This document shows, in pieces, positions 3,692 to 43,795 of a stretch of 64,000 nt of DNA. Numbering within the stretch: position 1 is the stretch's first letter; the number at the start of each line of letters is the position of its first letter. Below the pieces are notes generated by a model. The model ran no database searches, was not told the DNA's origin, and saw nothing but the letters and a program-made list of their open reading frames with translations. The DNA lies in the IMG/VR virus record IMGVR_UViG_3300048854_000126, positions 1-64,000 of that record; one strand, given 5' to 3'. This stretch comes from a virus. Both the position numbers and the translations under genes were made by a program.

Positions 3692-4299
3692 AAGCACTTC
3701 TCTCTAAGGTCGTCTTCCCCGTATTCGTGGCGGCTTTGGTGTTCGTCCTCGGCTTCGTGGCCGGCTACAGCTACCACTCGACCGGCGAGCTCAAAGCCGA
3801 TCTCAAGGCGAACACGACCGTGGCCCAGACCAACGCGCAAAGCGTCGCGGCGGCCCAGACGGCCAGCGTGAAGATCGAAGGCAAGATCGAGAAGACCGCG
3901 GCGGCCATCGACCTCAACAAGAGCGCCATCCACCAGCGGGTGACGGCTCAGATCCAGCGGCATGCAGAGGCCGCGTCCACCTACCTGGAGAACCACGATG
4001 AAACGACTTCCTTTCCTGACGGCAGCCCGACTTGCGGCGGCTTCTACCTTGATGTTGGCACTGTGCGCATGCTCAACGCCAGTCGTCAAGGAACCGTTGC
4101 TCGTCCCGCCGGCAGCCTCGATGAAGCGGGCGACGCCGCTCCAGCCCTTTGCTTTACCGACTTCATCGACGCAGACCAAGACCTGACCAAGCTGTATCTG
4201 GACCTGTCCGTGCGTCACGACGCGCTGGTTGATTCGGTCGAGGAGTTCCAGGCCAAGCAACGCGAGCGGCTCGGCATCGCGACAGATCCAGCACAGTAA
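3688..4299 (+). CDS. i-spanin (Rz-like)
   Basis: N-terminal TM plus coiled coil, after the endolysin, with an embedded lipoprotein ORF. Confidence 0.75.
   Translation: MKALLSKVVFPVFVAALVFVLGFVAGYSYHSTGELKADLKANTTVAQTNAQSVAAAQTASVKIEGKIEKTAAAIDLNKSAIHQRVTAQIQRHAEAASTYLENHDETTSFPDGSPTCGGFYLDVGTVRMLNASRQGTVARPAGSLDEAGDAAPALCFTDFIDADQDLTKLYLDLSVRHDALVDSVEEFQAKQRERLGIATDPAQ
3998..4186 (+). CDS. o-spanin (Rz1-like) embedded in Rz in another frame
   Basis: GGAG RBS; MKR signal peptide, lipobox LCA-C, Pro-rich mature part. Confidence 0.7.
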   Translation: MKRLPFLTAARLAAASTLMLALCACSTPVVKEPLLVPPAASMKRATPLQPFALPTSSTQTKT

Positions 4300-5113: not shown

Positions 5114-5242
5114 TGTAGCGAGAAGGAAGCGGAACGCTTGGGGCCAGGAACCGCTTCCCTCTATATCTAATACATCTTTTAAACTTACTATAATGGTAAG
5201 TGCTAGCTTATTCAATTTAGGGAAAATCGAGGAAAGCCCCAA

Positions 5243-5929
5243 GTGATCCAACCGACACCATACGGCAGTGAACTGACCACAGCGGACTGCGAGATGCTCG
5301 CGCTGTCGCGGGTCGCGCCGCCGATGCGGGCAGCCGAATCGATGCTCTTTACCAGGAAGTGGTTCGACTACCGCGCGATGCACCCGGTCCAGGCAACCTA
5401 CCGGTTCGCCCATGAATACCAGCAAGCAGTCTTGCGCGCATATGCCCGCCAAAAAGACGTGCGCACACTCGACAAGGTGAAAGGGTTCGACGTCAAAGGG
5501 CTGTTTGAATCCCGTGAGCTTTCAGCGGTGTGGCGGGCGCGACAAGCGTTCGATGCAATCGGGTGCCGCTACGAATTCGCGCTCGACTCCATATTCAAGC
5601 GCTTCTGCGAGCGCGGGTGGCGTGTCTTCCCGCGGCCGAACCAACTCTATGCAGAGGAGATCGTGCTCGATGTGCGCGACGCCTGGGTGCGCGAATGCAA
5701 GGCGATCACGCAGCTCGCAAAGCATGAGCGGTTCAAGGCCGAGAACTTTGAGGCACACCCCGACCAGATCGCCTATCAGGCGTGGCAGATCGAGCAGGTG
5801 AAAACTCGTGGCGGCAACCGGGCGATGTTGCTCGGTCGTCTGCTTCAGGAGCACGCGCTCACTGAGGACAGCGTTCGCACGGCGTTCGGAGACACAGTGC
5901 TCAGCCAGTCGAAAAGATTTATCGTTTGA
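5243..5929 (+). CDS. Hypothetical phage replication-region protein
   Basis: 228 aa ORF downstream of TATAAT at 5189-5194 and upstream of the Hfq-like and dnaB genes. Confidence 0.6.
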   Translation: MIQPTPYGSELTTADCEMLALSRVAPPMRAAESMLFTRKWFDYRAMHPVQATYRFAHEYQQAVLRAYARQKDVRTLDKVKGFDVKGLFESRELSAVWRARQAFDAIGCRYEFALDSIFKRFCERGWRVFPRPNQLYAEEIVLDVRDAWVRECKAITQLAKHERFKAENFEAHPDQIAYQAWQIEQVKTRGGNRAMLLGRLLQEHALTEDSVRTAFGDTVLSQSKRFIV

Positions 5930-5930
5930 A

Positions 5931-5948
5931 ATAGTCAGCGATTACTAT
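5931..5948. promoter_or_regulatory. Palindromic operator ATAGTCA-GCGA-TTACTAT overlapping a TATACT -10
   Basis: Copy of the recurrent motif, upstream of the Hfq-like/dnaB operon. Confidence 0.75.
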
Positions 5949-5997
5949 ACTTTGATGTAACGCAGCACAACCACTTAATCCACCCCGGAGATTTACC

Positions 5998-6486
5998 GTG
6001 AACAGCACCCCCGAACAAGTCCGCCTCGATCAATTGCAGCATGCCCGTCGCACGCTGAGCCTGTCGGGAGAAGCGGCCCAGCGCCCGGCCCGCGAGACGA
6101 CTCGTGAGTATCCGCGCACGTCACGCCCGGGCTTTGCCGCTGCATCGACGCGCATTCCCCGTCCGGGCTCAAATCGTGGTCATGACATGATCCTGAAGGC
6201 GATGCAAGAGAATGCCCAGCGCGCCACGATCATCACCGCAGACGGCGCAAAGTTCGAAGGCGTCATCACTGGTCGCGACAAATACACCATCACGCTGAAG
6301 ACCGCGCATCCGGACGAGGTTCGGGCGGCCGCGGGCGACAAGATCCTGCGCGTGTTCTACAAAAGCGCCATCGAGCAGTTCTGGGGCGAACAGGTGCCGC
6401 GAATTCCCGCTCGCGATATCGGCGACACCACGCGCGATGAGGACGGTATCGCTGAGCTGAAGGCGCTGTCGGACACGGAGCAGTAA
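5998..6486 (+). CDS. Hfq/Sm-fold-like protein with disordered N- and C-terminal extensions
   Basis: HDMILKAMQENAQRATIITADGAKFEGVITGRDKYTITLK...VFYKSAI aligns with Hfq [40 protein letters not shown]...MVYKHAI. Confidence 0.75.
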   Translation: MNSTPEQVRLDQLQHARRTLSLSGEAAQRPARETTREYPRTSRPGFAAASTRIPRPGSNRGHDMILKAMQENAQRATIITADGAKFEGVITGRDKYTITLKTAHPDEVRAAAGDKILRVFYKSAIEQFWGEQVPRIPARDIGDTTRDEDGIAELKALSDTEQ

Positions 6487-7871
6487 TGGTGAGCGCCGCA
6501 CCCGCACTGAGCGTCGTGCCGGCCGTTGAAGAACCAGCCGTTGAGAAATTCACATTCGACGGCGAGTTTCAGGCCCGTATCGCCGCCTTGACCCTTCGCG
6601 ACACAACATTCAACCAACTGGTGGACGGACTGCTTGAGCCGGGTTATTTCGAATCCGAGATCGAGTCGTATCTCGTAGGCTGCGCGCTGCGCTACTACGG
6701 GAAATACAAGAAAGCGCCGTCCGGGCTTGGCATCTACGCGATGCTGATCCGGGAGGACCTCGATTCGAAGGTGCTGCCGAAGGCGCTGGCCGCCGCTGCA
6801 GTGGGCCGGCTGAAAGAGCTTTTCGAGGTCGATATCTCGGATCGCGACTTCGTGGTCGATCAAGTGGCGACTTTTGCCCGTCACCAGGCGGTGCAGGAGG
6901 CCATGTATAAGGCGATCAACAAGCTCGACAAAAAGGACTTCGACGGCATTGCCACGGTGATGCGTCAGGCGCTCGACGTGGGCGCCAACCAGGACGGCGA
7001 CTGCTATGACTTCGCCGCGATGATCGACAGCCGCACGGGCGTGCGTCTGGACCGTCTTGCTGGCAAGTTGCCGCCGTCAGGCATCACGACCGGCTATAAG
7101 CCGATCGACGAGCTCCTGTATCACAAGGGGTGGGGTCGCAAAGAGCTATCCGTCATTCTCGGGGGCGCGAAGGCGGGCAAGACCACGGCGCTGATCGATT
7201 TCGGTATCAACGCATGGGCGGTCGGACACAACGTGCTGTATGCGTCGTGTGAAGTCGGCCGCGACGTGATCGCCGACCGGATGGATGCAAACATCAGCGC
7301 GCAAGCAATGATGGAGATGCACCACCACACCCATGACGTGCGCCAGAAGGTGGCCGACTTTGCGGCGAAGGCGCTGCGCACCGATGGCACGAACGCGAAG
7401 TTCATCGTTCATGAGTTCCCGACAGGCTCGCTGAAGGTGTCGGAGCTGCGCCGGCTGATCGAGCGATACAAGTCGCAAGGCATCGTCTTTGATCTGGTCG
7501 TGGTCGATTATGCGGACCTGCTGTGCCCGGAGCGTCATACCGACAGCGCGGTGGAAAACTCGAAGTCGATCTACGTGGACCTGCGCGGCCTCGCAATTCG
7601 CGAAGCGTTTGCCGTGCTTACTGCGACACAATCGAATCGTAACGGGATCAACGCGAACATCATCAAGGCTGAGCATGTGGCCGATGACTTTAATAAAATC
7701 CGCATTGCCGACATTGTGATTTCGATTAACCGCACCGACGAAGAGCGCGCGGCCGGTAAGGCACGACTTTATTTTGCCGCGTCGCGCAATCAGGGTGGCG
7801 AGTTCACCATCGAGATTGAGCAGGCGCTGGACCGGATGAAATTCATTACCCGAGTGCTCGGGTTCGCATAG
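6486..7871 (+). CDS. dnaB: Replicative DNA helicase (DnaB/gp41-like)
   Basis: GGAKAGKT Walker A, VVVDYAD Walker B, TATQSNR, and ITTGYKPID. Confidence 0.9.
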   Translation: MVSAAPALSVVPAVEEPAVEKFTFDGEFQARIAALTLRDTTFNQLVDGLLEPGYFESEIESYLVGCALRYYGKYKKAPSGLGIYAMLIREDLDSKVLPKALAAAAVGRLKELFEVDISDRDFVVDQVATFARHQAVQEAMYKAINKLDKKDFDGIATVMRQALDVGANQDGDCYDFAAMIDSRTGVRLDRLAGKLPPSGITTGYKPIDELLYHKGWGRKELSVILGGAKAGKTTALIDFGINAWAVGHNVLYASCEVGRDVIADRMDANISAQAMMEMHHHTHDVRQKVADFAAKALRTDGTNAKFIVHEFPTGSLKVSELRRLIERYKSQGIVFDLVVVDYADLLCPERHTDSAVENSKSIYVDLRGLAIREAFAVLTATQSNRNGINANIIKAEHVADDFNKIRIADIVISINRTDEERAAGKARLYFAASRNQGGEFTIEIEQALDRMKFITRVLGFA

Positions 7872-7880
7872 GGGGAAGCA

Positions 7881-8060
7881 GTGGACGATTCAAATGAGAT
7901 CCGCGACTTCATGGTCGAGCTCGCCGACGAAGAGTTTAAGCCGTCCACAATCGAGGCATTCACGGACGCCGCCGCTGCGATGCGGGACCGTGGCGTCACC
8001 GGCATCGCCGAGTTGCTCGGGTCGATCAAGTCCGCGATGAAGAACGAATATGGCGACTGA
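7881..8060 (+). CDS. Small hypothetical protein (59 aa)
   Basis: GTG start after GGGGGA; fills the gap between dnaB and primase; below the ORF-track cutoff. Confidence 0.45.
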   Translation: MDDSNEIRDFMVELADEEFKPSTIEAFTDAAAAMRDRGVTGIAELLGSIKSAMKNEYGD

Positions 8061-9150
8061 CGACCTGAGCGAGCTCCTCGAGCGCGTGGACATGACTGCA
8101 TACCTTGATCGCGAGGGCATCTCCTACCGGGAGACGCACGGACGATCGGGGCAGCAGCTTAACGTGCGTGAGTGCCCGACCTGCGGCAACTCGGAATGGA
8201 AAGTCTATCTGAACCAGGAGACGGGCGTGGGCAACTGCTTCGGCGGCTCGCACCCCGCCGACGAGCGCATTTTCACGAAATACCGGTTCATTCAGGCACA
8301 TCTGGGCAAGCCGCCGGCGGGGAAAGTCGTCGAGCACATTCGCATGTTCGCGAAAGAGCTGGGTTGGCAGCCCGCGCGCCGCACGTCAGCCAAGGTCGAC
8401 AACGCACCTGTCGCATGGGAGCTTCCCACGCATGTCGAGTTGCCGCACGACGGGAAGAACATTCCGTATCTGGACAACCGCGGCATTGACGCCGAGCTCG
8501 CGAAGTATTTCCACCTCGGCTACTGCCCGAATGGGTCCTATTTTCGATACCAGACGGAGCAGGGCTGGGCTTTTCAAGACTACGGTCGGCGCATCCTCAT
8601 TCCCGTCTACGACCTGGATGGCCAGGTGGCAACTTTTCAGGGGCGCGACGTCACGGGCCGCGCCGAGAAGAAATACCTGTTTCCGCCGGGCATCGACGGA
8701 TCGGGCGTGCACCTGTTCAATGGGCTCAATGTCCAGAATACGAAACGCATAGTGGTAGGCGAGGGTGCATTTGACGTCGCGGCCACCAAGATCGCACTCG
8801 ATGGCGACCAGGACTTGCGCGACATCGTGCCAGTGGGCACCTTCGGCAAGCACTTGAGCTCCGGGAGCGAGAACAGCCAGTTGGCCAAGTTCATGCTGCT
8901 GAAGAGCCGCGGTGTCGAGGAGATCACGATCATGTGGGACGGCGAGATCCAGGCCACCGACGATGCGGTCGATGCGGGCCTGATGCTGGCGTCGAACGGC
9001 TTTCGCGTGCGCATCGCGATGCTGCCACCCGAGAAAGACCCAAACGAAGTGCCCGCCGAAGTTGTGCGCCAGGCGTTCTACCAGGCAACGGCACTGTCCA
9101 GGAGGTCAGGCGCCGAGATTCGGATGAAACGCAGATTGATGAACAGATAA
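8050..9150 (+). CDS. DNA primase (Zn finger + TOPRIM)
   Basis: CPTC Zn finger; GEGAFD and MWDGE TOPRIM motifs; KDPNE. Confidence 0.9.
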   Translation: MATDDLSELLERVDMTAYLDREGISYRETHGRSGQQLNVRECPTCGNSEWKVYLNQETGVGNCFGGSHPADERIFTKYRFIQAHLGKPPAGKVVEHIRMFAKELGWQPARRTSAKVDNAPVAWELPTHVELPHDGKNIPYLDNRGIDAELAKYFHLGYCPNGSYFRYQTEQGWAFQDYGRRILIPVYDLDGQVATFQGRDVTGRAEKKYLFPPGIDGSGVHLFNGLNVQNTKRIVVGEGAFDVAATKIALDGDQDLRDIVPVGTFGKHLSSGSENSQLAKFMLLKSRGVEEITIMWDGEIQATDDAVDAGLMLASNGFRVRIAMLPPEKDPNEVPAEVVRQAFYQATALSRRSGAEIRMKRRLMNR

Positions 9151-9168
9151 GTAACCGGTGACTATAAT
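9148..9168. promoter_or_regulatory. Operator TAAGTAA-CCGG-TGACTAT overlapping TATAAT
   Basis: Copy of the recurrent motif; a degenerate second copy follows at 9170-9187. Confidence 0.7.
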
Positions 9169-10357: not shown

Positions 10358-11779
10358 ATGACTAATATGACCTCTGACCAGGCGTTCAACGCGATTGAGA
10401 AGATCGCCGCAACGTCCAAGAAGAACGAAAAGGAAGCGATGGTGAAGCAGTTCCTCGCCTTCGACACCTTCAAGCGCGCGCTGGTGGCCGCGCTCGATCC
10501 GCTTGTCACCTACGGCATGCAGCAGGTGCCCGATCGCATCGAAGGCGCGGCGCCAGGTGCCAACACCTTCGAGAACGCGCCGATCTGGGAAACGCTCGAC
10601 AAGCTCGCGGCCCGCACGCTCACGGGCAACGACGCCCGCAACGAAGTGCAGCGCCTGATGACCTTCCTCACGCCGCAGTCGGCCGAGCTCTTCAAGCGAA
10701 TCATCCGCAAGGATCTGCGCGCGGGCTTTTCCGGCTCGACGGTCAACAAAGCGTGGAAGGGCCTGATTCAAGAATTCCCTTACATGCGCTGCGTGCTGCC
10801 CGAGAAGGCCAAGTTCGAAAAGTGGGACTGGGCGGCCGGTGTTTTCAGTCAGCACAAGGCTGATGGCGCATTCACCAACGTCGATCACGAAGAAAGCGGT
10901 GTTGTGCGCCTCACCACGCGTCAGGGAAACGAACTGCCGATCGAGGCGTTCCCGGCGATGGCCGACGAGATCCGTCGCTCGCTCACCAAGGGCACACAGA
11001 CGCACGGTGAGATCGTCGTGTTCGTGGACGGTGTGATGGCAACACGTGAGATCGGCAACGGCATCCTGAACCGCATCCAGGCGGGCGGGGCGTTCGCCGC
11101 AAACGAAGTGCCGGTGTTCTACGGTTGGGACCAGATTCCGCTCTCGGCGGTGGTGCCAAAGGGCGAGCATCAAGTCGGCTATCGCGAGCGTTTCAAAGGC
11201 TTGCTCCTGCAGCTGGTGAAGGCGGGCACGACGTCGGTCAAGGTCATCCCGACGAAGATCGTCCACTCGCTGAAGGAAGCTTACGAGCACTGCACGAGTC
11301 TGCAGATCGATGGCAAGGAAGGCACGGTCATCAAAGAAGGCAGCGGCATCTGGAAGGACACTGATTCCGGCAACCCGTTCGTCGTGAAGCTCAAGCTCGA
11401 GGTGGACGTCGATCTGGTGTGCGTGGGCGTTGTGCCGGGTCGCGTGGGCACGAAAAACGAAGGGCGCGCAGGATCGATCACGCTCGAGACGTCGGACGGG
11501 CTGCTGCGCGTCGATGCAGCGGTAAAGGGCGAAAAGATGCGTGATGACGTCGATGCGAACCCGACCAACTGGATCGGCAGCATCGTCGCGCTGCGCTTCA
11601 ATTCGATCCTGAAGCCGTCAGCAAGCAACGACCTGCATTCGCTCTTCCTGCCGCGTCTGGTCGAGGCGAGCTACCGCACCGACAAGATCGTCGCCGACTC
11701 GCTCGAGGAAGTGTTCGCACAGTTCAACGCCAAAGTCACCGGCGTGCCCATTGAAAAGAAAGTGGCGGAGGCCGCCTGA
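10358..11779 (+). CDS. ATP-dependent DNA ligase (T4 gp30-like)
   Basis: KADG motif I, HGEI, EGTVIK, VVKLK, LFLPR; operator at 10348-10365 overlaps the ATG. Confidence 0.9.
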   Translation: MTNMTSDQAFNAIEKIAATSKKNEKEAMVKQFLAFDTFKRALVAALDPLVTYGMQQVPDRIEGAAPGANTFENAPIWETLDKLAARTLTGNDARNEVQRLMTFLTPQSAELFKRIIRKDLRAGFSGSTVNKAWKGLIQEFPYMRCVLPEKAKFEKWDWAAGVFSQHKADGAFTNVDHEESGVVRLTTRQGNELPIEAFPAMADEIRRSLTKGTQTHGEIVVFVDGVMATREIGNGILNRIQAGGAFAANEVPVFYGWDQIPLSAVVPKGEHQVGYRERFKGLLLQLVKAGTTSVKVIPTKIVHSLKEAYEHCTSLQIDGKEGTVIKEGSGIWKDTDSGNPFVVKLKLEVDVDLVCVGVVPGRVGTKNEGRAGSITLETSDGLLRVDAAVKGEKMRDDVDANPTNWIGSIVALRFNSILKPSASNDLHSLFLPRLVEASYRTDKIVADSLEEVFAQFNAKVTGVPIEKKVAEAA

Positions 11780-13808: not shown

Positions 13809-14519
13809 TCATTTGTGCCCGAATCCGAGGGCTGCTTTGCGATGAAACCCGGCGTATTTTACCTTTTGCCATTCGGTCGTGCGGCCGCGCTGGTAGAGAG
13901 AATCAAGGCGCTTCGCGACCATGCCTTCGAAGCCGTGAAGCTCGACTTGTTCCCAGACCCATTCGCCGGCGCCGACGATACCATTCGTGAAAACGAGCGA
14001 TCCGGTGTCCTCGAAACTGTCGCGCAGGAAGGCTTTGCGCTTGAGTAGCGGCAGCCCGCGCAAGTCGCGAGTCCCGAGCGTCAAGATATCGAACAGGTAG
14101 AGCCGCGCCGGCCGCGCGATCGATGCTGCCTTCACACGTGACGCGACTGAGGTTACCGCGCGGGAGCGCAACACTTCAAAGTTGGAGTAACCGCCAGGGT
14201 CATCTACGGTGAGCTCGGCATCCCACGTGAAATCGCCGGGCACCTGCGCAATCGCCGCGACAACTTCCGGGAAGGACCGATTCAACGAGTTGCCGGGTCG
14301 CGATATCAGATCCACGCGCACGCCCTGCTTTCGGATCAAGCACCGAAATCCATCGTATTTCCATTCGAAGATCCACCCCTTCATGGAAAACGGCGCCTGA
14401 CGCAAGGTAGCCAGCATCAGGTCGGTCGATTCGATTGCCTTGAGCAGCGGCACGCCCGGCGGCTTGGTCCGGACGGCTAGTTTCTTTGATCCATCCGGGG
14501 CCTGCAGCGCACGGGCCAT
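13809..14519 (-). CDS. ATP-dependent DNA ligase, LigD-type adenylation domain (host-like)
   Basis: EWKYDGFR, DAEL, YLFDIL, EGMVAKR and WQKVK motifs; no OB domain. Confidence 0.85.
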   Translation of the reverse strand: MARALQAPDGSKKLAVRTKPPGVPLLKAIESTDLMLATLRQAPFSMKGWIFEWKYDGFRCLIRKQGVRVDLISRPGNSLNRSFPEVVAAIAQVPGDFTWDAELTVDDPGGYSNFEVLRSRAVTSVASRVKAASIARPARLYLFDILTLGTRDLRGLPLLKRKAFLRDSFEDTGSLVFTNGIVGAGEWVWEQVELHGFEGMVAKRLDSLYQRGRTTEWQKVKYAGFHRKAALGFGHK

Positions 14520-17358: not shown

Positions 17359-17973
17359 TTAATCCCCGAGGCGGCGCAGGTTCTGAGCCAGTGTGTCGTA
17401 TTGCGGGTTCGATCCCCCGGCAGGATCAGTAACCGTCACCTGTTGGATGTTGAACGTCGCGTTGTCGCCAGTCGAATTGATAATGTTCACATTGAGCGTG
17501 ATCTTCGCCTCGCTGCCGTTTGGCAACCGACCGTTCTTCGCGAAATGCTGCAGCTCCTTGATGAAGCTCGCGAACATCATCGGCTGATAGACGCCCTCGC
17601 CCACCGCCTTCACTTCGCCCATCGGATCTGTCATGGGAATGATTTCCTTGAGCGAATAGTTGTTCCGCCGCCCTACTTTGGTCCGCTCGACGATGTTGAG
17701 TTCCGTGAGCCGGTCGAGCGCCCGGTAGACCGTATCGAGCGAGACGCCGATGTGCTTGGCGATCGTGTCCTGACTTGGCCACGCCTTCCCGGTATTGAGG
17801 GCCGTGTAGGCTTTGAGGACCGTGTAGACCGCCCAGGCGTGCACGCCCATTTCGGCGATCTTGTCGCGGACGATCATTGAACGCACCACATGAAACCAGT
17901 GATGCTCCACCTTGAGCTCGTCCCACAACTCCTGCTGCTCAGGCGGATCAACCCTGTTTGTTAGATTTTGCAT
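17359..17973 (-). CDS. Putative replication initiator (winged-helix, HTH_36-like)
   Basis: AWPSQDTIAKHIGVSLDTVYRALDRL HTH; lies between the par genes and the iteron region. Confidence 0.7.
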   Translation of the reverse strand: MQNLTNRVDPPEQQELWDELKVEHHWFHVVRSMIVRDKIAEMGVHAWAVYTVLKAYTALNTGKAWPSQDTIAKHIGVSLDTVYRALDRLTELNIVERTKVGRRNNYSLKEIIPMTDPMGEVKAVGEGVYQPMMFASFIKELQHFAKNGRLPNGSEAKITLNVNIINSTGDNATFNIQQVTVTDPAGGSNPQYDTLAQNLRRLGD

Positions 17974-18400
17974 TGAGCTCTTTCTCCATGCGGTCCATCT
18001 CGCGCTCGAGCGCGCGCACGAGGATTGTCTTCATCGTCTCGCCGGGCACCCGCGACAGCATCATCAGGCGTTCTTTGACGTGAACGGGTATACGCGTATT
18101 GTGGACCACTTCCGGCACGATCGTCGGCATCGCAGACTGCCATGACTGCGCCGGCGCCGCGGCCTGGGGAGCTACCGGCGCAACAGCTGGTGCAGGCGCG
18201 CGGACTTCCGCAGGCGGCGTCGCTTGAGCGGCGGGCGCAGCGTCGGCCGGAGACCGCGTTTCACTTTCGGACTGCCCTCCCCTCACGGCATTCATCGCCT
18301 CACGTGCTGGTTGCTCGCTCCAGTCGGACAGCTTTTCCAGTCGTTCGTGCGGGTTGCTGCTGCTCTGCGGCCGGCGCATAGGCGGAACGGAAGCTTTCAT
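17948..18400 (-). CDS. Type Ib partition partner (ParG-like ribbon-helix-helix)
   Basis: Flexible N-terminus plus C-terminal HNTRIPVHVKERL...TMKTILVRAL RHH pattern; directly after parA. Confidence 0.65.
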   Translation of the reverse strand: MKASVPPMRRPQSSSNPHERLEKLSDWSEQPAREAMNAVRGGQSESETRSPADAAPAAQATPPAEVRAPAPAVAPVAPQAAAPAQSWQSAMPTIVPEVVHNTRIPVHVKERLMMLSRVPGETMKTILVRALEREMDRMEKELNAKSNKQG

Positions 18401-19052
18401 TGAATATCTCCTGGTAGAGCTGTTTGATTTCATCTGCGGCGGCACCCTTCGGCTCAAACTCGATCAGCGCCTTTCCGACGCGAGCGGCACGCCGGAACGC
18501 AACGCGATCCATGATTCGCGTATTGAAGATAGGCAGCTCATCCTTGTATTCGTCGAGGGCCTCAAGCGTCTCTTCAACTTCGTTCGTCGAGGTTGAGGCA
18601 CAGTTGATTAGGATGCGCCCCGGCGCGCGGTGGCCGGTCTTTTCTTCGACGTCTTTAATCAAAGTGAGCATCCGGTCGATCGACCACGTGTCAAAGACGG
18701 AAGGCTGCACAGGGATAATGAGGTGGGTCGCAACGGCCACGGCCTGTCGCATTTCCGTGGAGTCCCGCCCGCCAACGTCGACTACCACCCGGCGATATTT
18801 CTGGGCGAACGACAAAAGATCCGCTCCGATCTTTCCCGTTTTCTTGGCGGTCACCACGCGCGGCTCGACGCCATTCTCGAAGCGCATGTCTGCCCAGCCC
18901 GTGGAAGTCTCCTGCTTGTCAGCGTCTACCAGCAGCGTGTCGTGACCTGCTAGCATGCTCATAACGGCAACGTTGCCGCTCAGGGTGGTCTTGCCCACCC
19001 CGCCCTTCTCCATTGCCACGACTACTATGTCGCCGAGAGAACCCATATCCAT
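18300..19052 (-). CDS. parA: ParA/ParF partition ATPase (type Ib)
   Basis: KGGVGKTT deviant Walker A, VDADKQ, VVVDVGG; no N-terminal HTH. Confidence 0.9.
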   Translation of the reverse strand: MDMGSLGDIVVVAMEKGGVGKTTLSGNVAVMSMLAGHDTLLVDADKQETSTGWADMRFENGVEPRVVTAKKTGKIGADLLSFAQKYRRVVVDVGGRDSTEMRQAVAVATHLIIPVQPSVFDTWSIDRMLTLIKDVEEKTGHRAPGRILINCASTSTNEVEETLEALDEYKDELPIFNTRIMDRVAFRRAARVGKALIEFEPKGAAADEIKQLYQEIFNESFRSAYAPAAEQQQPARTTGKAVRLERATST

Positions 19053-20673: not shown

Positions 20674-22953
20674 ATGCACGTCAATAATCGAGTCCTGATC
20701 CTGCGCGAAGCGATCACGAAAATCGTTCCAATGCTTACACAGCGATCAGTTAAGGTTACGCAGCAGGGCACACAAGCCTACGTGTCGTATGACAAGCGCA
20801 CGCTCGCCATCAAAAAGGTGAACTTGCCCTACATACCGGACGACGCTGACGACATCCTGCTCGATGCGACACAGGGCTTTCTGGACCACGAGGTCGGGCA
20901 CATCCTGTTCACGGACCAGAAGTGCGTATTAAAGGCCGAGAAGCAGGGTGTGCATACGCTCCACAACATGATCGAGGACACCTTCGTCGAGCGGCGCATG
21001 GGCGAGCAGTTTCCAGGCTGCGGCTCGAACCTGTCGAAGATGCACGGTTTCTTCCTGACCGAATACATCGACACCCGGCTGAAAGAGGCTCCCGAGCACT
21101 CGGCCGCGATCCTGTTGGTGTGTGCACTGCGGGCGTGGGCCGGTCAGCCCGCGTTCGTTGATTACATGAAAGACAAGTGGGCGGTCATGAAGGACATCTC
21201 CGACCGCCTGGGTAAAGACTTCCCGAGCAAGCTGCGCGGCGTGAAAAGCTCACAGGACGGCCTGGCGCTCGCGCTCGAGGCGAAACAGCGTCTTGAGCCC
21301 AAGAAGCCGCCAATGCCGAAAGCGCCGCCGCCGCCCGCACCTCCCGCTCCGCCGCCAGAGCCGACGCCGCCCAGCGCGCCGGAAGAGGGAGACCCCGCGC
21401 CTGCTAGCGGTGAGGAGGAGCCGGGCGACACAGCAGCCGAGAGTTCGTCAGCGCCGGAAGAGCGAGACGAAGAAATGATGCCGAGCGACTTGCCCGAGTT
21501 GGGAGGCGATGGGGCACCGCCGGAACCCGAGGGTGAGGAGGTTCGGGAGCCGGAACCCGAGCCAACCGGTGACGAAGCGCCGCCAGAAGACCCGGAGGAG
21601 GGCGACGATGAGCCAGGCGCCGCACCTGAGCCGGAGCCAACCGTAGAGCCGCCGGATGAGGAAGAAGAGCCCGCACTGCCCAGTGGCGGGGGATCGTCCG
21701 GAGCCGAGCCCGAAGACGATGAGGAGGCAGAAGACGAGGAGGGCGAACGCGACGCGGGAATGTCCGGCGGGGGCGCGGGCGAGGATACCGAAAGTGATTC
21801 GGGCGAAAACCCGGGCGACGAGAATTCCGACAGCGATACAGGGGCGAGCGGCGGCTCCGAGCCTGCGTCTACCGGTGAAGGAGAGGCGCCGGGTGGTGGC
21901 GAACCGCAGGAGGGCTCTGAAGAGCCGGAGACGGGTAGTTCGCCAGAAGACGGGCGCGATATCTTCAAGGAGATCAGTTCCGCTCCGGTGAAGGACTTCG
22001 ATGAGGCGGCGGCAGACGCGCTAACGAAAAGCGCCGTCGCATCGACGAAGGAGTCGGACTATTCGGTCTTTACCCGCGATGAGGACCAGATTGGCGTGCT
22101 CGACACGCCCGAAGGGTTCGACCAATCGCAGGTCACGGACATGCAAAACGAGGTCGATCACATGGTCGGCCCGATGCAGAAGGACATTCAGCGGGCGATT
22201 GCTGCGCGTTCAGCGTCTGTGTGGACTGGTGGGCACAAGCGCGGGAAGTTGCACGGCGCTTCGCTGTCGCGGGTTCTGACGGGCCGCGAAGACGTGTTCC
22301 GGCAGAAGCAGGTCAACACGACCAAGGACGTCGCGGTATCGCTCCTGGTTGATGCATCGGGGTCAATGTCGCATGCCCGGAAAATCATCATTGCGGGCTA
22401 TACGGCATACGCCCTGTCTTCGGTCCTCGATAACTTGTCGATTCCGAACGAGGTGCTCGCTTTCAGCACGACGTCGTTCTCCAGCTCGGTGCTGCGCGCC
22501 ATGCAACAGGAGTCGAGCGAGCACGGGTTCAGATACGACCGCAGTGAGGCGCTCAACATCGCGATCATCAAATCCTTCGCGGAGCGGATCACGCCCGATG
22601 TGCGTCGGCGTTTTGCCCTTCTATCGAGCTATGAAAACGGCTTGATGCAGGAAAACGTCGATGGCGAGTCAGTGCAGATCGCCAACAGGCGTCTTCAGCA
22701 GCAGCGCGCCTCGCGCAAGGTGCTCATGGTCCTCTCAGACGGCAAGCCCGCGTGTGGTGGGCTGAGCCGCGCACTGAATTCGCACCTTAAAGAAGTAGTT
22801 AAGCAAATCGAAGCACGCGGCACCGACGTGGTAGCGCTCGGCATCGTTGATAAGTCGGTGCGCGAATTTTATAAGCGCGCGCTAGTGATCGACAAAGTGG
22901 CTGACCTGCCGACGATCGTCATGAAGGAGCTGCACAAGCTGTTGGTCCAATAA
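20674..22953 (+). CDS. CobT-like VWA protein (HExxH N-terminal domain, acidic Pro-rich linker)
   Basis: DHEVGH; long P/E/G low-complexity linker; MIDAS DASGSM and LSDG. Confidence 0.85.
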   Translation: MHVNNRVLILREAITKIVPMLTQRSVKVTQQGTQAYVSYDKRTLAIKKVNLPYIPDDADDILLDATQGFLDHEVGHILFTDQKCVLKAEKQGVHTLHNMIEDTFVERRMGEQFPGCGSNLSKMHGFFLTEYIDTRLKEAPEHSAAILLVCALRAWAGQPAFVDYMKDKWAVMKDISDRLGKDFPSKLRGVKSSQDGLALALEAKQRLEPKKPPMPKAPPPPAPPAPPPEPTPPSAPEEGDPAPASGEEEPGDTAAESSSAPEERDEEMMPSDLPELGGDGAPPEPEGEEVREPEPEPTGDEAPPEDPEEGDDEPGAAPEPEPTVEPPDEEEEPALPSGGGSSGAEPEDDEEAEDEEGERDAGMSGGGAGEDTESDSGENPGDENSDSDTGASGGSEPASTGEGEAPGGGEPQEGSEEPETGSSPEDGRDIFKEISSAPVKDFDEAAADALTKSAVASTKESDYSVFTRDEDQIGVLDTPEGFDQSQVTDMQNEVDHMVGPMQKDIQRAIAARSASVWTGGHKRGKLHGASLSRVLTGREDVFRQKQVNTTKDVAVSLLVDASGSMSHARKIIIAGYTAYALSSVLDNLSIPNEVLAFSTTSFSSSVLRAMQQESSEHGFRYDRSEALNIAIIKSFAERITPDVRRRFALLSSYENGLMQENVDGESVQIANRRLQQQRASRKVLMVLSDGKPACGGLSRALNSHLKEVVKQIEARGTDVVALGIVDKSVREFYKRALVIDKVADLPTIVMKELHKLLVQ

Positions 22954-23064
22954 AATAACTCGTGGAAATAGTAAGTGGTGACTTGCTTTTGCCAGCGAGT
23001 CACCCTTAGAATTCAGTCTGTCGGTTCAATCAATTCGCAATTTACGTCTCACACGGAGGCTTCA

Positions 23065-24282
23065 ATGAGCAACCCGGATCAAAAGATCGAATGCGCAGAG
23101 TGCGGCGCACTGGTGCATGCCATCGAGATTCACTTGAAGGACGCCCACCCGGGCATGACGCTCGCCGATTACACGGCAAAACACCCCCAAGCACCCGTTC
23201 TGTCCGAGCGCGCGAAGCTCGCCATCGCCGCGAAGCGTGCAGAGAAGGCCGGCGCTACCGCCACACCCGCCGCGACCACGGTTGGCATGGCCGGCGCTGC
23301 GCTTCCCGCGAACGTGACGGCGCTCAACCCGACCGGTATGACGACCGCCGCGCTGCACGACGTGTTTGGACTGGTCGACCCAATGGGCAAGCCCGTCGCA
23401 GCGGCTAAGAACGGGCGCGGTGACCCGATTGGCGTCACGGTTTTCACGACGCCGACTCACCCCGATCTCGTGCCGGGAATCGATGATGGCTTCATCTTCG
23501 ATATCGACAACCTCAAAAACGCCTTGATGGCGCTCGAGCTCAAAAAGAACCTGTATGTCTGGGGTCATGCTGGCACTGGCAAAACGACCCTGATTGAACA
23601 GATCGCGGGCCGCACCGGGCGTCCGGTCATTCGCGTGCAGCACTCGATCGGCACCGAAGAGTCGCACGTCCTGGGTCAGTGGGTCGTGCGCGGCGGACAG
23701 ACCGAATTTCAGCCGGGCTTGCTGCCGCTCGCCATGAAACACGGTTGGACATACCTCGCTGACGAATACGACTTCGGGCTGCCTGCGGTGCTCGCCGTGT
23801 ATCAGCCGATCCTCGAACCGAATAAGTCACTGGTTATCAAAGATGCGCCCGACGAATGGCGCGTCGTGAAGCCGCACGAGAACTTCCGATTCGTCGCGAC
23901 GGGCAACACCAACGGCTCCGGCGATGAAACCGGGCTGTATCAGGGAACGCAGATCCAGAACGCCGCGAACTATGACCGGTTCGGCATGGTGCTCGAGGCG
24001 AAATACATGGACCCCGTGCTCGAGGCGGCGATCCTTGTGAACCGCGCAAAGGTGAAGCGTGAACACGCCGAAAAGCTCGTCGATTTCGCCAACCGTGTTC
24101 GGGAGTCCTACAAGAATAAGGAAGTCGCCAGCACGATCAGCCCGCGCTGCTTGATCGACGCGGCAGACATCGGTCTTCGCAAGGGTAGCTGGCGTGCTGG
24201 GGTCACCCTCTCTTTCATCAACAAGCTTTCCGCAGTCGATCGCGCAGTCGTAGACGGCGTTGCATCGCGCATTTTCCCGTAA
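23065..24282 (+). CDS. CobS/MoxR-like AAA+ ATPase with N-terminal Zn finger
   Basis: CAEC...H...H; GHAGTGKT; LADEYD; ATGN; DRF; preceded by operator 22968-22985. Confidence 0.85.
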   Translation: MSNPDQKIECAECGALVHAIEIHLKDAHPGMTLADYTAKHPQAPVLSERAKLAIAAKRAEKAGATATPAATTVGMAGAALPANVTALNPTGMTTAALHDVFGLVDPMGKPVAAAKNGRGDPIGVTVFTTPTHPDLVPGIDDGFIFDIDNLKNALMALELKKNLYVWGHAGTGKTTLIEQIAGRTGRPVIRVQHSIGTEESHVLGQWVVRGGQTEFQPGLLPLAMKHGWTYLADEYDFGLPAVLAVYQPILEPNKSLVIKDAPDEWRVVKPHENFRFVATGNTNGSGDETGLYQGTQIQNAANYDRFGMVLEAKYMDPVLEAAILVNRAKVKREHAEKLVDFANRVRESYKNKEVASTISPRCLIDAADIGLRKGSWRAGVTLSFINKLSAVDRAVVDGVASRIFP

Positions 24283-43518: not shown

Positions 43519-43579
43519 TCGCGCCATGAGTCGGTGTTGAGATTTGAGGTCGGGCATCGCGCCCGACTGAATCAGAGAA

Positions 43580-43795
43580 GTCATTGAAGCCGCGCCGCAA
43601 GCAAATCCCCGGTAGTGCCCGCGTGACCGGATAAACGCGCACAAATGAAAGGGTAGTAGCTGGGCGGGCCTAGCAAACGCAGACGGTGAACACGTAGAAG
43701 CTGAACCTACGCTCTCCCGCGGTCCTTGTGACCGGCATCGTATATCTGCGATGGCGCCGGATCGTTCCCGGCAGCGGCCTCAATGACGTCTTTTT
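43580..43795 (+). ncRNA. Unclassified multi-stem structured RNA upstream of thyX
   Basis: Closing stem 43580-43597/43769-43787 encloses several hairpins; U-tract follows; strand inferred. Confidence 0.5.

Follow-up and report, generated by a model that had tools for sequence, protein, structure and literature searches.

A deeply diverged Hfq-like protein encoded beside the replicative helicase gene in a lineage of phages and phage-plasmids of about 105 kb

Examining a 64,000-nucleotide stretch of viral DNA (positions 1 to 64,000 of IMG/VR virus record IMGVR_UViG_3300048854_000126; hereafter the window), we find that the protein encoded immediately upstream of the DnaB-like helicase belongs genuinely to the Hfq branch of the Sm superfamily, though it has diverged deeply. 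The whole record, from soil metagenomes, spans 105,119 bp and represents a complete virus genome that has terminal repeats; the sequencing runs listed for it are all soil-metagenome DNA, with no RNA run among them. We call this Hfq-like protein HfqL; its open reading frame (ORF) occupies 5998-6486 on the plus strand and encodes 162 amino acids (aa). As to its role, we give about even odds (a probability of roughly 0.5) to the reading that HfqL is an element-encoded ring that binds single-stranded, probably U-rich, RNA for the element's own post-transcriptional control. The gene and the parts of its product are laid out as follows.

5987-5990, plus strand: Shine-Dalgarno sequence GGAG of HfqL, read from the sequence and invariant among related loci
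5998-6486, plus strand: HfqL coding sequence, 162 aa (Pfam Hfq, E 5.7e-6; 19 homologues, E 2.5e-95 to 3.7e-18)
6010-6060, plus strand: conserved N-terminal helix, residues 5-21, TPEQxRxxQLxxxR (alignment and AlphaFold)
6061-6174, plus strand: Arg-rich, disordered and variable linker, residues 22-59, ending in a basic arm before Gly-His (model confidence and charge)
6175-6390, plus strand: Sm/Hfq core, residues 60-131 (helix alpha1 and five strands)
6307-6339, plus strand: L4 loop insertion within the Sm core, about residues 104-114
6391-6483, plus strand: acidic tail at the C-terminus, residues 132-162 (helix predicted at 148-159; isoelectric point, pI, 4.2)
6484-6488, plus strand: TAATG stop/start overlap of HfqL and DnaB, read from the sequence

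The start codon is a GTG at 5998, with the Shine-Dalgarno sequence 7 nucleotides (nt) upstream of it, and the N-terminal TPEQ..R..Q motif, conserved in the 19 homologues, supports this start. The peptides on which a preliminary description of this DNA, made by eye, had based its comparison with Hfq lie at residues 62-71 (HDMILKAMQE), 76-101 (ATIITADGAKFEGVITGRDKYTITLK) and 119-125 (VFYKSAI). Its account of the flanking and inserted segments is accurate as well: aligned to an Hfq structure, HfqL has 19 residues between K101 and Y121 against 7 in Hfq, which is the insertion of about 12 aa between Sm1 and Sm2; the Arg-rich N-tail holds 11 Arg in 60 aa (pI 11.8); and the acidic C-tail, taken as the last 31 residues, has the low pI given above.

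The assignment of HfqL to the Hfq/Sm fold is borne out by sequence profiles, by the predicted fold and by conserved Sm1 and Sm2 residues. In hmmscan, Pfam Hfq (PF17209) matches residues 63-104 with 26.3 bits, against a gathering cut-off of 27; in a six-frame search of the genome the same family scores 26.8 bits, and 28.8 bits, flagged as over the cut-off, when neighbouring stretches are counted in. The 19 homologues were aligned (alignment A1), and a profile built from 20 close relatives and searched against 1.84 billion cluster representatives retrieves 346 proteins at E<=1e-3, including 62 at E<=1e-10. Among 63 aligned family members, 59 match Pfam Hfq independently at E<=0.01, the best at 7e-13, and most members of the family carry the canonical YKHAI motif.

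The AlphaFold model of HfqL has a core made of helix alpha1 (residues 60-71) followed by strands at 75-80, 85-93, 97-103, 115-121 and 125-131, with a predicted local distance difference test score (pLDDT) of 77-88. Outside the core it predicts an N-terminal helix at 5-21, a disordered linker (pLDDT below 50 at residues 24-51) and a C-terminal helix at 148-159. When this model is compared with the PDB by Foldseek, a check named in the preliminary description, 54 matches are found at E<1e-3, nearly all of them Hfq of many species, with target-normalised template-modelling (TM) scores of 0.55-0.70; the structural alignments of HfqL with canonical Hfq show about 25% identity. A viral structure library was searched as well; there, a protein of Pseudomonas phage nickie that is uncharacterised and mycobacteriophage proteins (from two phages) labelled "Hfq-like domain" are among the best matches. 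In a protein atlas HfqL falls among Hfq_1/Hfq clusters.

The divergence is equally plain from other searches. The NCBIfam Hfq equivalogs TIGR02383 and NF001602 give HfqL only 18.3 bits against a cut-off of 61.7 and 14.1 bits against one of 95, and since it falls so far below them, HfqL is not a copy of chromosomal hfq. Searched against PDB sequences, the A1 profile finds no significant Hfq match (Hfq E 0.87); a likeness to the C-domain of the arginine repressor in the same search (E 0.11) is non-significant and is treated as chance. No match is returned by tblastn of HfqL and of family member P0024 against cultured phages, and a scan of species-representative genomes with A1 yields pattern matches and no confirmed relative. 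Longer fused forms, such as a fusion to DnaB, were not found, in a search whose negative outcome counts as weak evidence.

Mapping the RNA-binding surfaces of Hfq onto HfqL, we found that they have fared very differently. The numbering of E. coli Hfq was transferred through a HMMER alignment to an Hfq structure, and residues were counted in 169 family members.

Hfq Q8 (proximal pocket): H62 in HfqL; His in 169 of 169 family members
Hfq F42 (proximal pocket): Y96 in HfqL; Tyr in 88, Phe in 79 and Trp in 2 of 169
Hfq K56 (proximal pocket): K122 in HfqL; Lys in 169 of 169
Hfq H57 (proximal pocket): S123 in HfqL; His in 134 and Ser in 33 of 169
Hfq G34 (Sm1): G88 in HfqL; Gly in 167 of 169
Hfq D40 (Sm1): D94 in HfqL; Asp in 169 of 169
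Hfq R16, R17 and R19 (rim): Q70, E71 and A73 in HfqL; family mostly Gln, Asp or Glu, and Gly
Hfq Y25 (distal face): I79 in HfqL; family aliphatic or polar

In the proximal uridine pocket HfqL keeps two of the four Hfq residues, with Q8 replaced by the invariant His and H57 by Ser. Its Sm2 motif reads Y-K-S-A-I, and in the family position 55 is Tyr or Phe, position 58 is Ala in 129 of the 169 members and position 59 is Ile in 154. The rim arginine patch is absent from HfqL, as is the distal A-R-N site (Tyr25, Ile30, Lys31): there is no aromatic residue at distal position 25 in the family, and positions 30 and 31 are A84 and K85 in HfqL, neither of which is conserved among its relatives. Judged from the sequences, the proximal pore pocket is thus the sole conserved functional surface of the family. 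Classical matchmaking between small regulatory RNAs (sRNAs) and mRNAs depends on the rim arginine patch together with the distal-face Tyr. Because HfqL has neither, a plain "Hfq chaperone" reading is too simple.

Set beside the bacterial Hfq proteins of known structure (PF17209; 1hk9, 1u1s and 1kq1; E. coli, P. aeruginosa and S. aureus), HfqL thus shares the fold of alpha1 and five strands, Gly34 and Asp40 of Sm1, the Y-K-x-A-I pattern of Sm2, the aromatic residue at 42 and Lys56, and it too has disordered tails, with an acidic C-terminal end in the HfqL subgroup. It differs in having His for Q8 and Ser for His57, in lacking the R16/R17/R19 patch and Tyr25, and in adding the L4 insertion of about 12 aa and an N-terminal extension of about 60 aa that consists of the conserved helix and the basic arm. 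Moreover, HfqL is phage-encoded, coupled to DnaB and far under the NCBIfam equivalog cut-off.

The added N-terminal segment has a conservation pattern of its own. P5, E6, R9, Q12 and R17 are invariant in A1, and a loose form of the helix motif is present in 71 of 167 family members. Across the family the N-terminal extension has a median length of 45 residues, and the 15 aa before the invariant Gly-His, where alpha1 starts, carry a mean net charge of +3.4. The acidic C-tail is limited to the closest HfqL subgroup. The basic arm, which would emerge on the proximal face, could replace the lost rim arginines, and the conserved helix is probably a docking or self-regulating module.

The neighbours of the gene are as follows.

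5243-5929, plus strand: phrog_2500 protein, 228 aa, constant upstream neighbour of HfqL (phrog_2500, E 8.6e-48)
6486-7871, plus strand: DnaB-like replicative helicase, 461 aa (Pfam DnaB_C, E 1.2e-13; phrog_19, E 5.5e-74)
7881-8060, plus strand: ORF of 59 aa between DnaB and primase, overlapping the primase start (weak match to phrog_268, E 0.0067)
8050-9150, plus strand: DnaG-type primase, 366 aa, last large gene of the operon (phrog_47, E 9.5e-53; Pfam DNAG_N and Toprim_2)

The preliminary description had placed the gene inside the replication operon with its stop codon overlapping the dnaB start, and we find just that: HfqL is the first cistron of a helicase-primase operon, and the TAATG at 6484-6488 merges its stop with the ATG of DnaB. 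All ten close loci have such an overlap, as TGATG or TAATG, and the first possible DnaB start lies -4 to +5 nt from the HfqL stop in most of the 32 loci checked. The gene order PhoH, phrog_2500, HfqL, DnaB, primase is the same in all 12 close IMG/VR loci and in all 23 more distant ones found with a broader alignment, 35 viral loci in total. Relative to the window, HfqL identity in these loci declines from 61% to about 30% while that of DnaB declines from 90% to 42-44%. Because the two fall together, we read the pattern as vertical descent with faster evolution of HfqL. Thus, the HfqL-DnaB arrangement was inherited vertically across a wide phage lineage and has long been maintained. HfqL is co-transcribed with DnaB and is probably translationally coupled to it, and the constancy of the operon suggests a role tied either to the expression of the replication genes or to replication itself.

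An upstream operator had been described as well, and here the claim needs narrowing, for the palindrome is real but belongs to a genome-wide regulatory motif that is not special to HfqL.

5931-5951, plus strand: putative operator/promoter, an 18-bp imperfect palindrome (ATAGTCA-N4-TTACTAT, 5931-5948) over a -10-like TATACT (5946-5951), from a conserved intergenic alignment

The 68-nt spacer upstream of HfqL holds this conserved block in an intergenic alignment of 7 related loci. The right half of the palindrome together with the -10 box, T[GT]ACTATA[AC]T, occurs 10 times in the window against 0.1 expected, always on the plus strand and before genes (at 5185, 5942, 9159, 20299, 29842, 34397, 43269, 44884, 47449 and 50537), and ATAGTAA half-sites accompany several of the copies, often completing the 18-bp palindrome. 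The element resembles a promoter specific to the phage, overlaid by an operator; a scan for the sigma-70 consensus found no site upstream of HfqL. The copies at 5942 and 9159 (9159-9168) bracket HfqL, DnaB, the 59-aa ORF and the primase as one unit, and the phrog_2500 gene has a copy of its own at 5185-5194.

In Stenotrophomonas phage BUCTxx99, the slot that HfqL occupies in the window holds a 69-aa ORF (3778-3987) that runs 8 nt into DnaB. No relation of this ORF to the Hfq-like family could be detected (hhalign probability 2%), and it was rejected as a relative. Upstream of DnaB there may be a hot spot where small accessory genes settle.

Relatives of HfqL in named elements are found in Cupriavidus and Burkholderia. 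A protein annotated "RNA chaperone Hfq" (WP_224446232) is encoded on two circular Cupriavidus metallidurans plasmids of 106-107 kb; it belongs to the same subfamily as HfqL with an hhalign probability of 99%. In the plasmid that was inspected, the gene lies in the same PhoH, p2500, Hfq, DnaB, primase module as in the window, here adjoining TrfA, and the plasmid also has tail, tape-measure, capsid, portal and terminase genes. Proteins named "RNA chaperone Hfq" on Burkholderia contigs (WP_081070221 and others; E 7e-21 to 4e-18) belong to the same subfamily, and the contigs with family members are of 101-115 kb and larger. Unlike HfqL, the Cupriavidus and Burkholderia proteins have the canonical YKH, are 118-136 aa long and have no acidic C-tail, and the Hfq-like gene of the Cupriavidus plasmid ends 25 nt before DnaB, which HfqL overlaps.

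Counterparts also occur in Nickievirus (Nican01 "hfq", XAI70047; nickie, phiK7B1, ZY21 and hairong), where the gene sits in the same slot between phrog_2500 and DnaB and overlaps the helicase start. The Nican01 protein shares the GH-x-ILK, DxYTITL and FKS motifs with HfqL, is 33% identical to it over the core and has weak Pfam Hfq and Hfq_1 matches. It differs in being 105 aa long, in having no long N-terminal helix and arm and in having a longer L4 loop. These proteins are too distant to be reached by tblastn from HfqL, and the Nican01 protein alone retrieves its six Nickievirus relatives.

The DnaB of the window is 39-44% identical to those of Nickievirus (Pseudomonas syringae), of RHEph10-like Rhizobium phages, of Stenotrophomonas phages and of phage-plasmid SSU5 (39%), all elements of about 105-120 kb. 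The nearest matches to this DnaB come from Paraburkholderia and Burkholderia records, which makes a host in the Burkholderiaceae probable. The window also holds a plasmid-type island at 17362-19052.

17362-17973, minus strand: HTH_36/DnaD_N-like putative initiator, Rep-like, of a type typical of plasmid initiators
17951-18457, minus strand: ORF of 169 aa within the island
18303-19052, minus strand: ParA ATPase

ParB_N proteins are encoded in the same genome. A search of the genome for TrfA was silent, and as it was silent in control genomes too, it is uninformative. Given the ParA, Rep-like and ParB_N genes and the Cupriavidus plasmid with its phage structural genes, the label of phage-plasmid used in the preliminary description is reasonable for the lineage, to which the plasmid-type genes and the circular Cupriavidus relatives both point, and for the present genome a plasmid life is probable but not proven. 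Elsewhere in the window, two genes with ATP-dependent DNA ligase domains lie on opposite strands, at 10358-11779 (plus) and 13809-14519 (minus), the second encoding a protein of 236 aa with the adenylation domain only (E 1.8e-25), and 20674-24282 (plus) encodes a CobT-like VWA protein of 759 aa followed by an AAA_5/CbbQ-type MoxR ATPase of 435 aa, the two forming a VWA-MoxR pair.

What might such a protein do? We propose that HfqL would be produced when replication sets in, together with the helicase and the primase, would assemble into an Hfq-like ring and would bind single-stranded, probably U-rich, RNA around the pore of its proximal face. We place RNA binding on this face because it is the only Hfq surface that keeps conserved residues in the family. 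A ring of this design would hold single-stranded nucleic acid at its pore rather than two RNAs on different faces, and HfqL would act as a stabiliser, a translational modulator or a helper in antisense control rather than as a general sRNA-mRNA matchmaker. It may, for example, stabilise or tune replication mRNAs, or aid antisense control of replication. There is precedent for such proteins in mobile elements, since plasmid pQBR103 encodes an Hfq homologue (PMC9928087). In phage T4, a D25Y change in the LSm-like GoF protein makes the gene 41 mRNA, which encodes the replicative helicase, more stable (PMC12152347). Like HfqL, GoF is a phage protein, expressed early, with an Sm-like barrel, and the mutant raises the stability of gene 41 mRNA; however, it has no sequence similarity to HfqL, its gene does not adjoin the helicase gene, its fold is nearer to FeoA/SH3 folds, and its mRNA effect is limited to the gain-of-function mutant.

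Several observations weigh against this proposal. His57 of Hfq contacts the RNA 3' end, and HfqL has Ser at that position; the rim and distal sites are missing altogether. The window contains no recognised sRNA, tRNA or Rfam family. The structured RNAs at 43580, 56800 and 57991 had been offered as candidate clients of HfqL, and this suggestion is not confirmed: there is no Rfam or tRNA match in the window, and nothing ties these RNAs to HfqL. At the first of these sites, the non-coding stretch 43575-43792 (plus strand), also with no Rfam match, is more stable when folded than its shuffled versions (z -2.53, with 2 of 200 shuffles as stable), and a shorter cut at 43519-43727 gives no such signal (z +0.66). 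SSU5 and RHEph10 keep phrog_2500, DnaB and primase with no gene in the HfqL slot, and as they have the same module without it, HfqL is dispensable for some relatives. Finally, the constant adjacency to DnaB, in a genome with no recognisable single-stranded DNA-binding protein (SSB) or helicase loader, fits a role in DNA replication equally well.

That last point leads to the alternative that the Sm ring is a replication accessory factor acting on DNA or on the replisome and not on regulatory RNA, by coating or organising single-stranded DNA, by handing over RNA primers, or by loading or tethering DnaB, with the N-terminal helix as docking element. We consider this, the main alternative, somewhat unlikely, and several points favour it. 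In all 35 viral loci, including those where DnaB identity is as low as 42%, HfqL lies directly upstream of DnaB, usually with the stop and start abutting, and the 105,119-bp genome has its own DnaB and primase and yet no Pfam match for an SSB or for a loader of the DnaC/IstB or lambda-P type. Plasmids of Thermococcus and Methanocaldococcus (pTN2/pEXT9a-like) likewise carry an Sm/Hfq-like domain in the transcription unit of their replicative helicase (PMC3543421); these archaeal proteins, likened to HfqL by description, are encoded downstream of the helicase and are fused to an N-terminal zinc finger. Hfq itself binds DNA, a complex with double-stranded DNA (PDB 5uk7) being among the Foldseek matches of HfqL, and a conserved helix tethered by a disordered linker is a typical protein-docking motif. 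However, synteny in compact phage operons is weak evidence of physical interaction, the relatives SSU5 and RHEph10 do without HfqL, so that DnaB function does not generally depend on it, and the constant neighbour phrog_2500 is the better candidate for a loader. We also know of no helicase loader or SSB with an Sm fold. A prediction of the DnaB-HfqL complex scored 0.00 in both runs, with controls not run, and speaks neither for nor against binding. We doubt, though we would not dismiss, a bolder form in which hexameric HfqL, produced in concert with the hexameric DnaB, is a replisome component: it would bind primer RNA or single-stranded DNA and help to load, tether or regulate the helicase-primase. 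HfqL and the phrog_2500 protein, a fold orphan, may then jointly stand in for the loader and the SSB that are missing.

It is quite unlikely that HfqL is directed at the host, competing with host Hfq for sRNAs and mRNAs or forming defective mixed rings with it and so rewiring host control. The retained proximal pocket would allow U-tailed host sRNAs to be sequestered, and plasmid-borne homologues of regulators that take over host networks have been described, as with RsmQ and the Hfq homologue of pQBR103 (PMC9928087). Against this, HfqL is very distant from canonical Hfq, at about 25% identity, its long vertical history in the phage lineage speaks against a recent capture from a host, and its gene lies in the replication operon rather than with genes for lysogeny or early host takeover. 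Mixed hexamers with host Hfq, as the preliminary description had entertained, are unlikely because HfqL reaches only 18 bits where the NCBIfam equivalog cut-off is 61.7. Least probable by far is that HfqL is no relative of Hfq at all, being instead a generic SH3-like small barrel whose likeness to Hfq is convergent or due to chance: a Pfam score just below the gathering cut-off (26.3 against 27) and the PDB-sequence profile search with no significant Hfq match (E 0.87) would suit it, but 59 of 63 family members match Pfam Hfq on their own (best 7e-13), the significant Foldseek matches are nearly all Hfq, alpha1, the Sm1 Gly and Asp and YK[HS]AI are placed exactly as in Hfq, and most of the family has the canonical YKHAI.

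A phage Hfq-like gene as such is not new, since relatives at NCBI are named "RNA chaperone Hfq" and the Nican01 gene is named "hfq". In the literature library that was searched, no paper characterising the gene was found. What is new is the extent of the subfamily, its signature (His at position 8, rim and distal sites lost, a basic arm and an N-terminal helix) and its invariant coupling to DnaB throughout a deep phage lineage. Direct testing is possible because cultured carriers exist, namely the plasmid of Cupriavidus metallidurans ZM16 (NZ_CP090528) and the Nickievirus phages of Pseudomonas.

Hfq is a central RNA chaperone of many bacteria, and its phage and plasmid versions are almost unstudied. 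HfqL represents a large and old subfamily of distinct design, locked to the replicative helicase gene of widespread phages and phage-plasmids of about 105 kb. If HfqL binds RNA, it would be a natural minimal Hfq that reveals which functions of an Sm ring a mobile element requires. Should its site of action be the replisome instead, it would be a new kind of replication factor and the first Sm-fold protein directly active in DNA replication, and this would explain why Hfq-like genes stand beside helicases in elements as unrelated as the present phage lineage and the Thermococcus plasmids.

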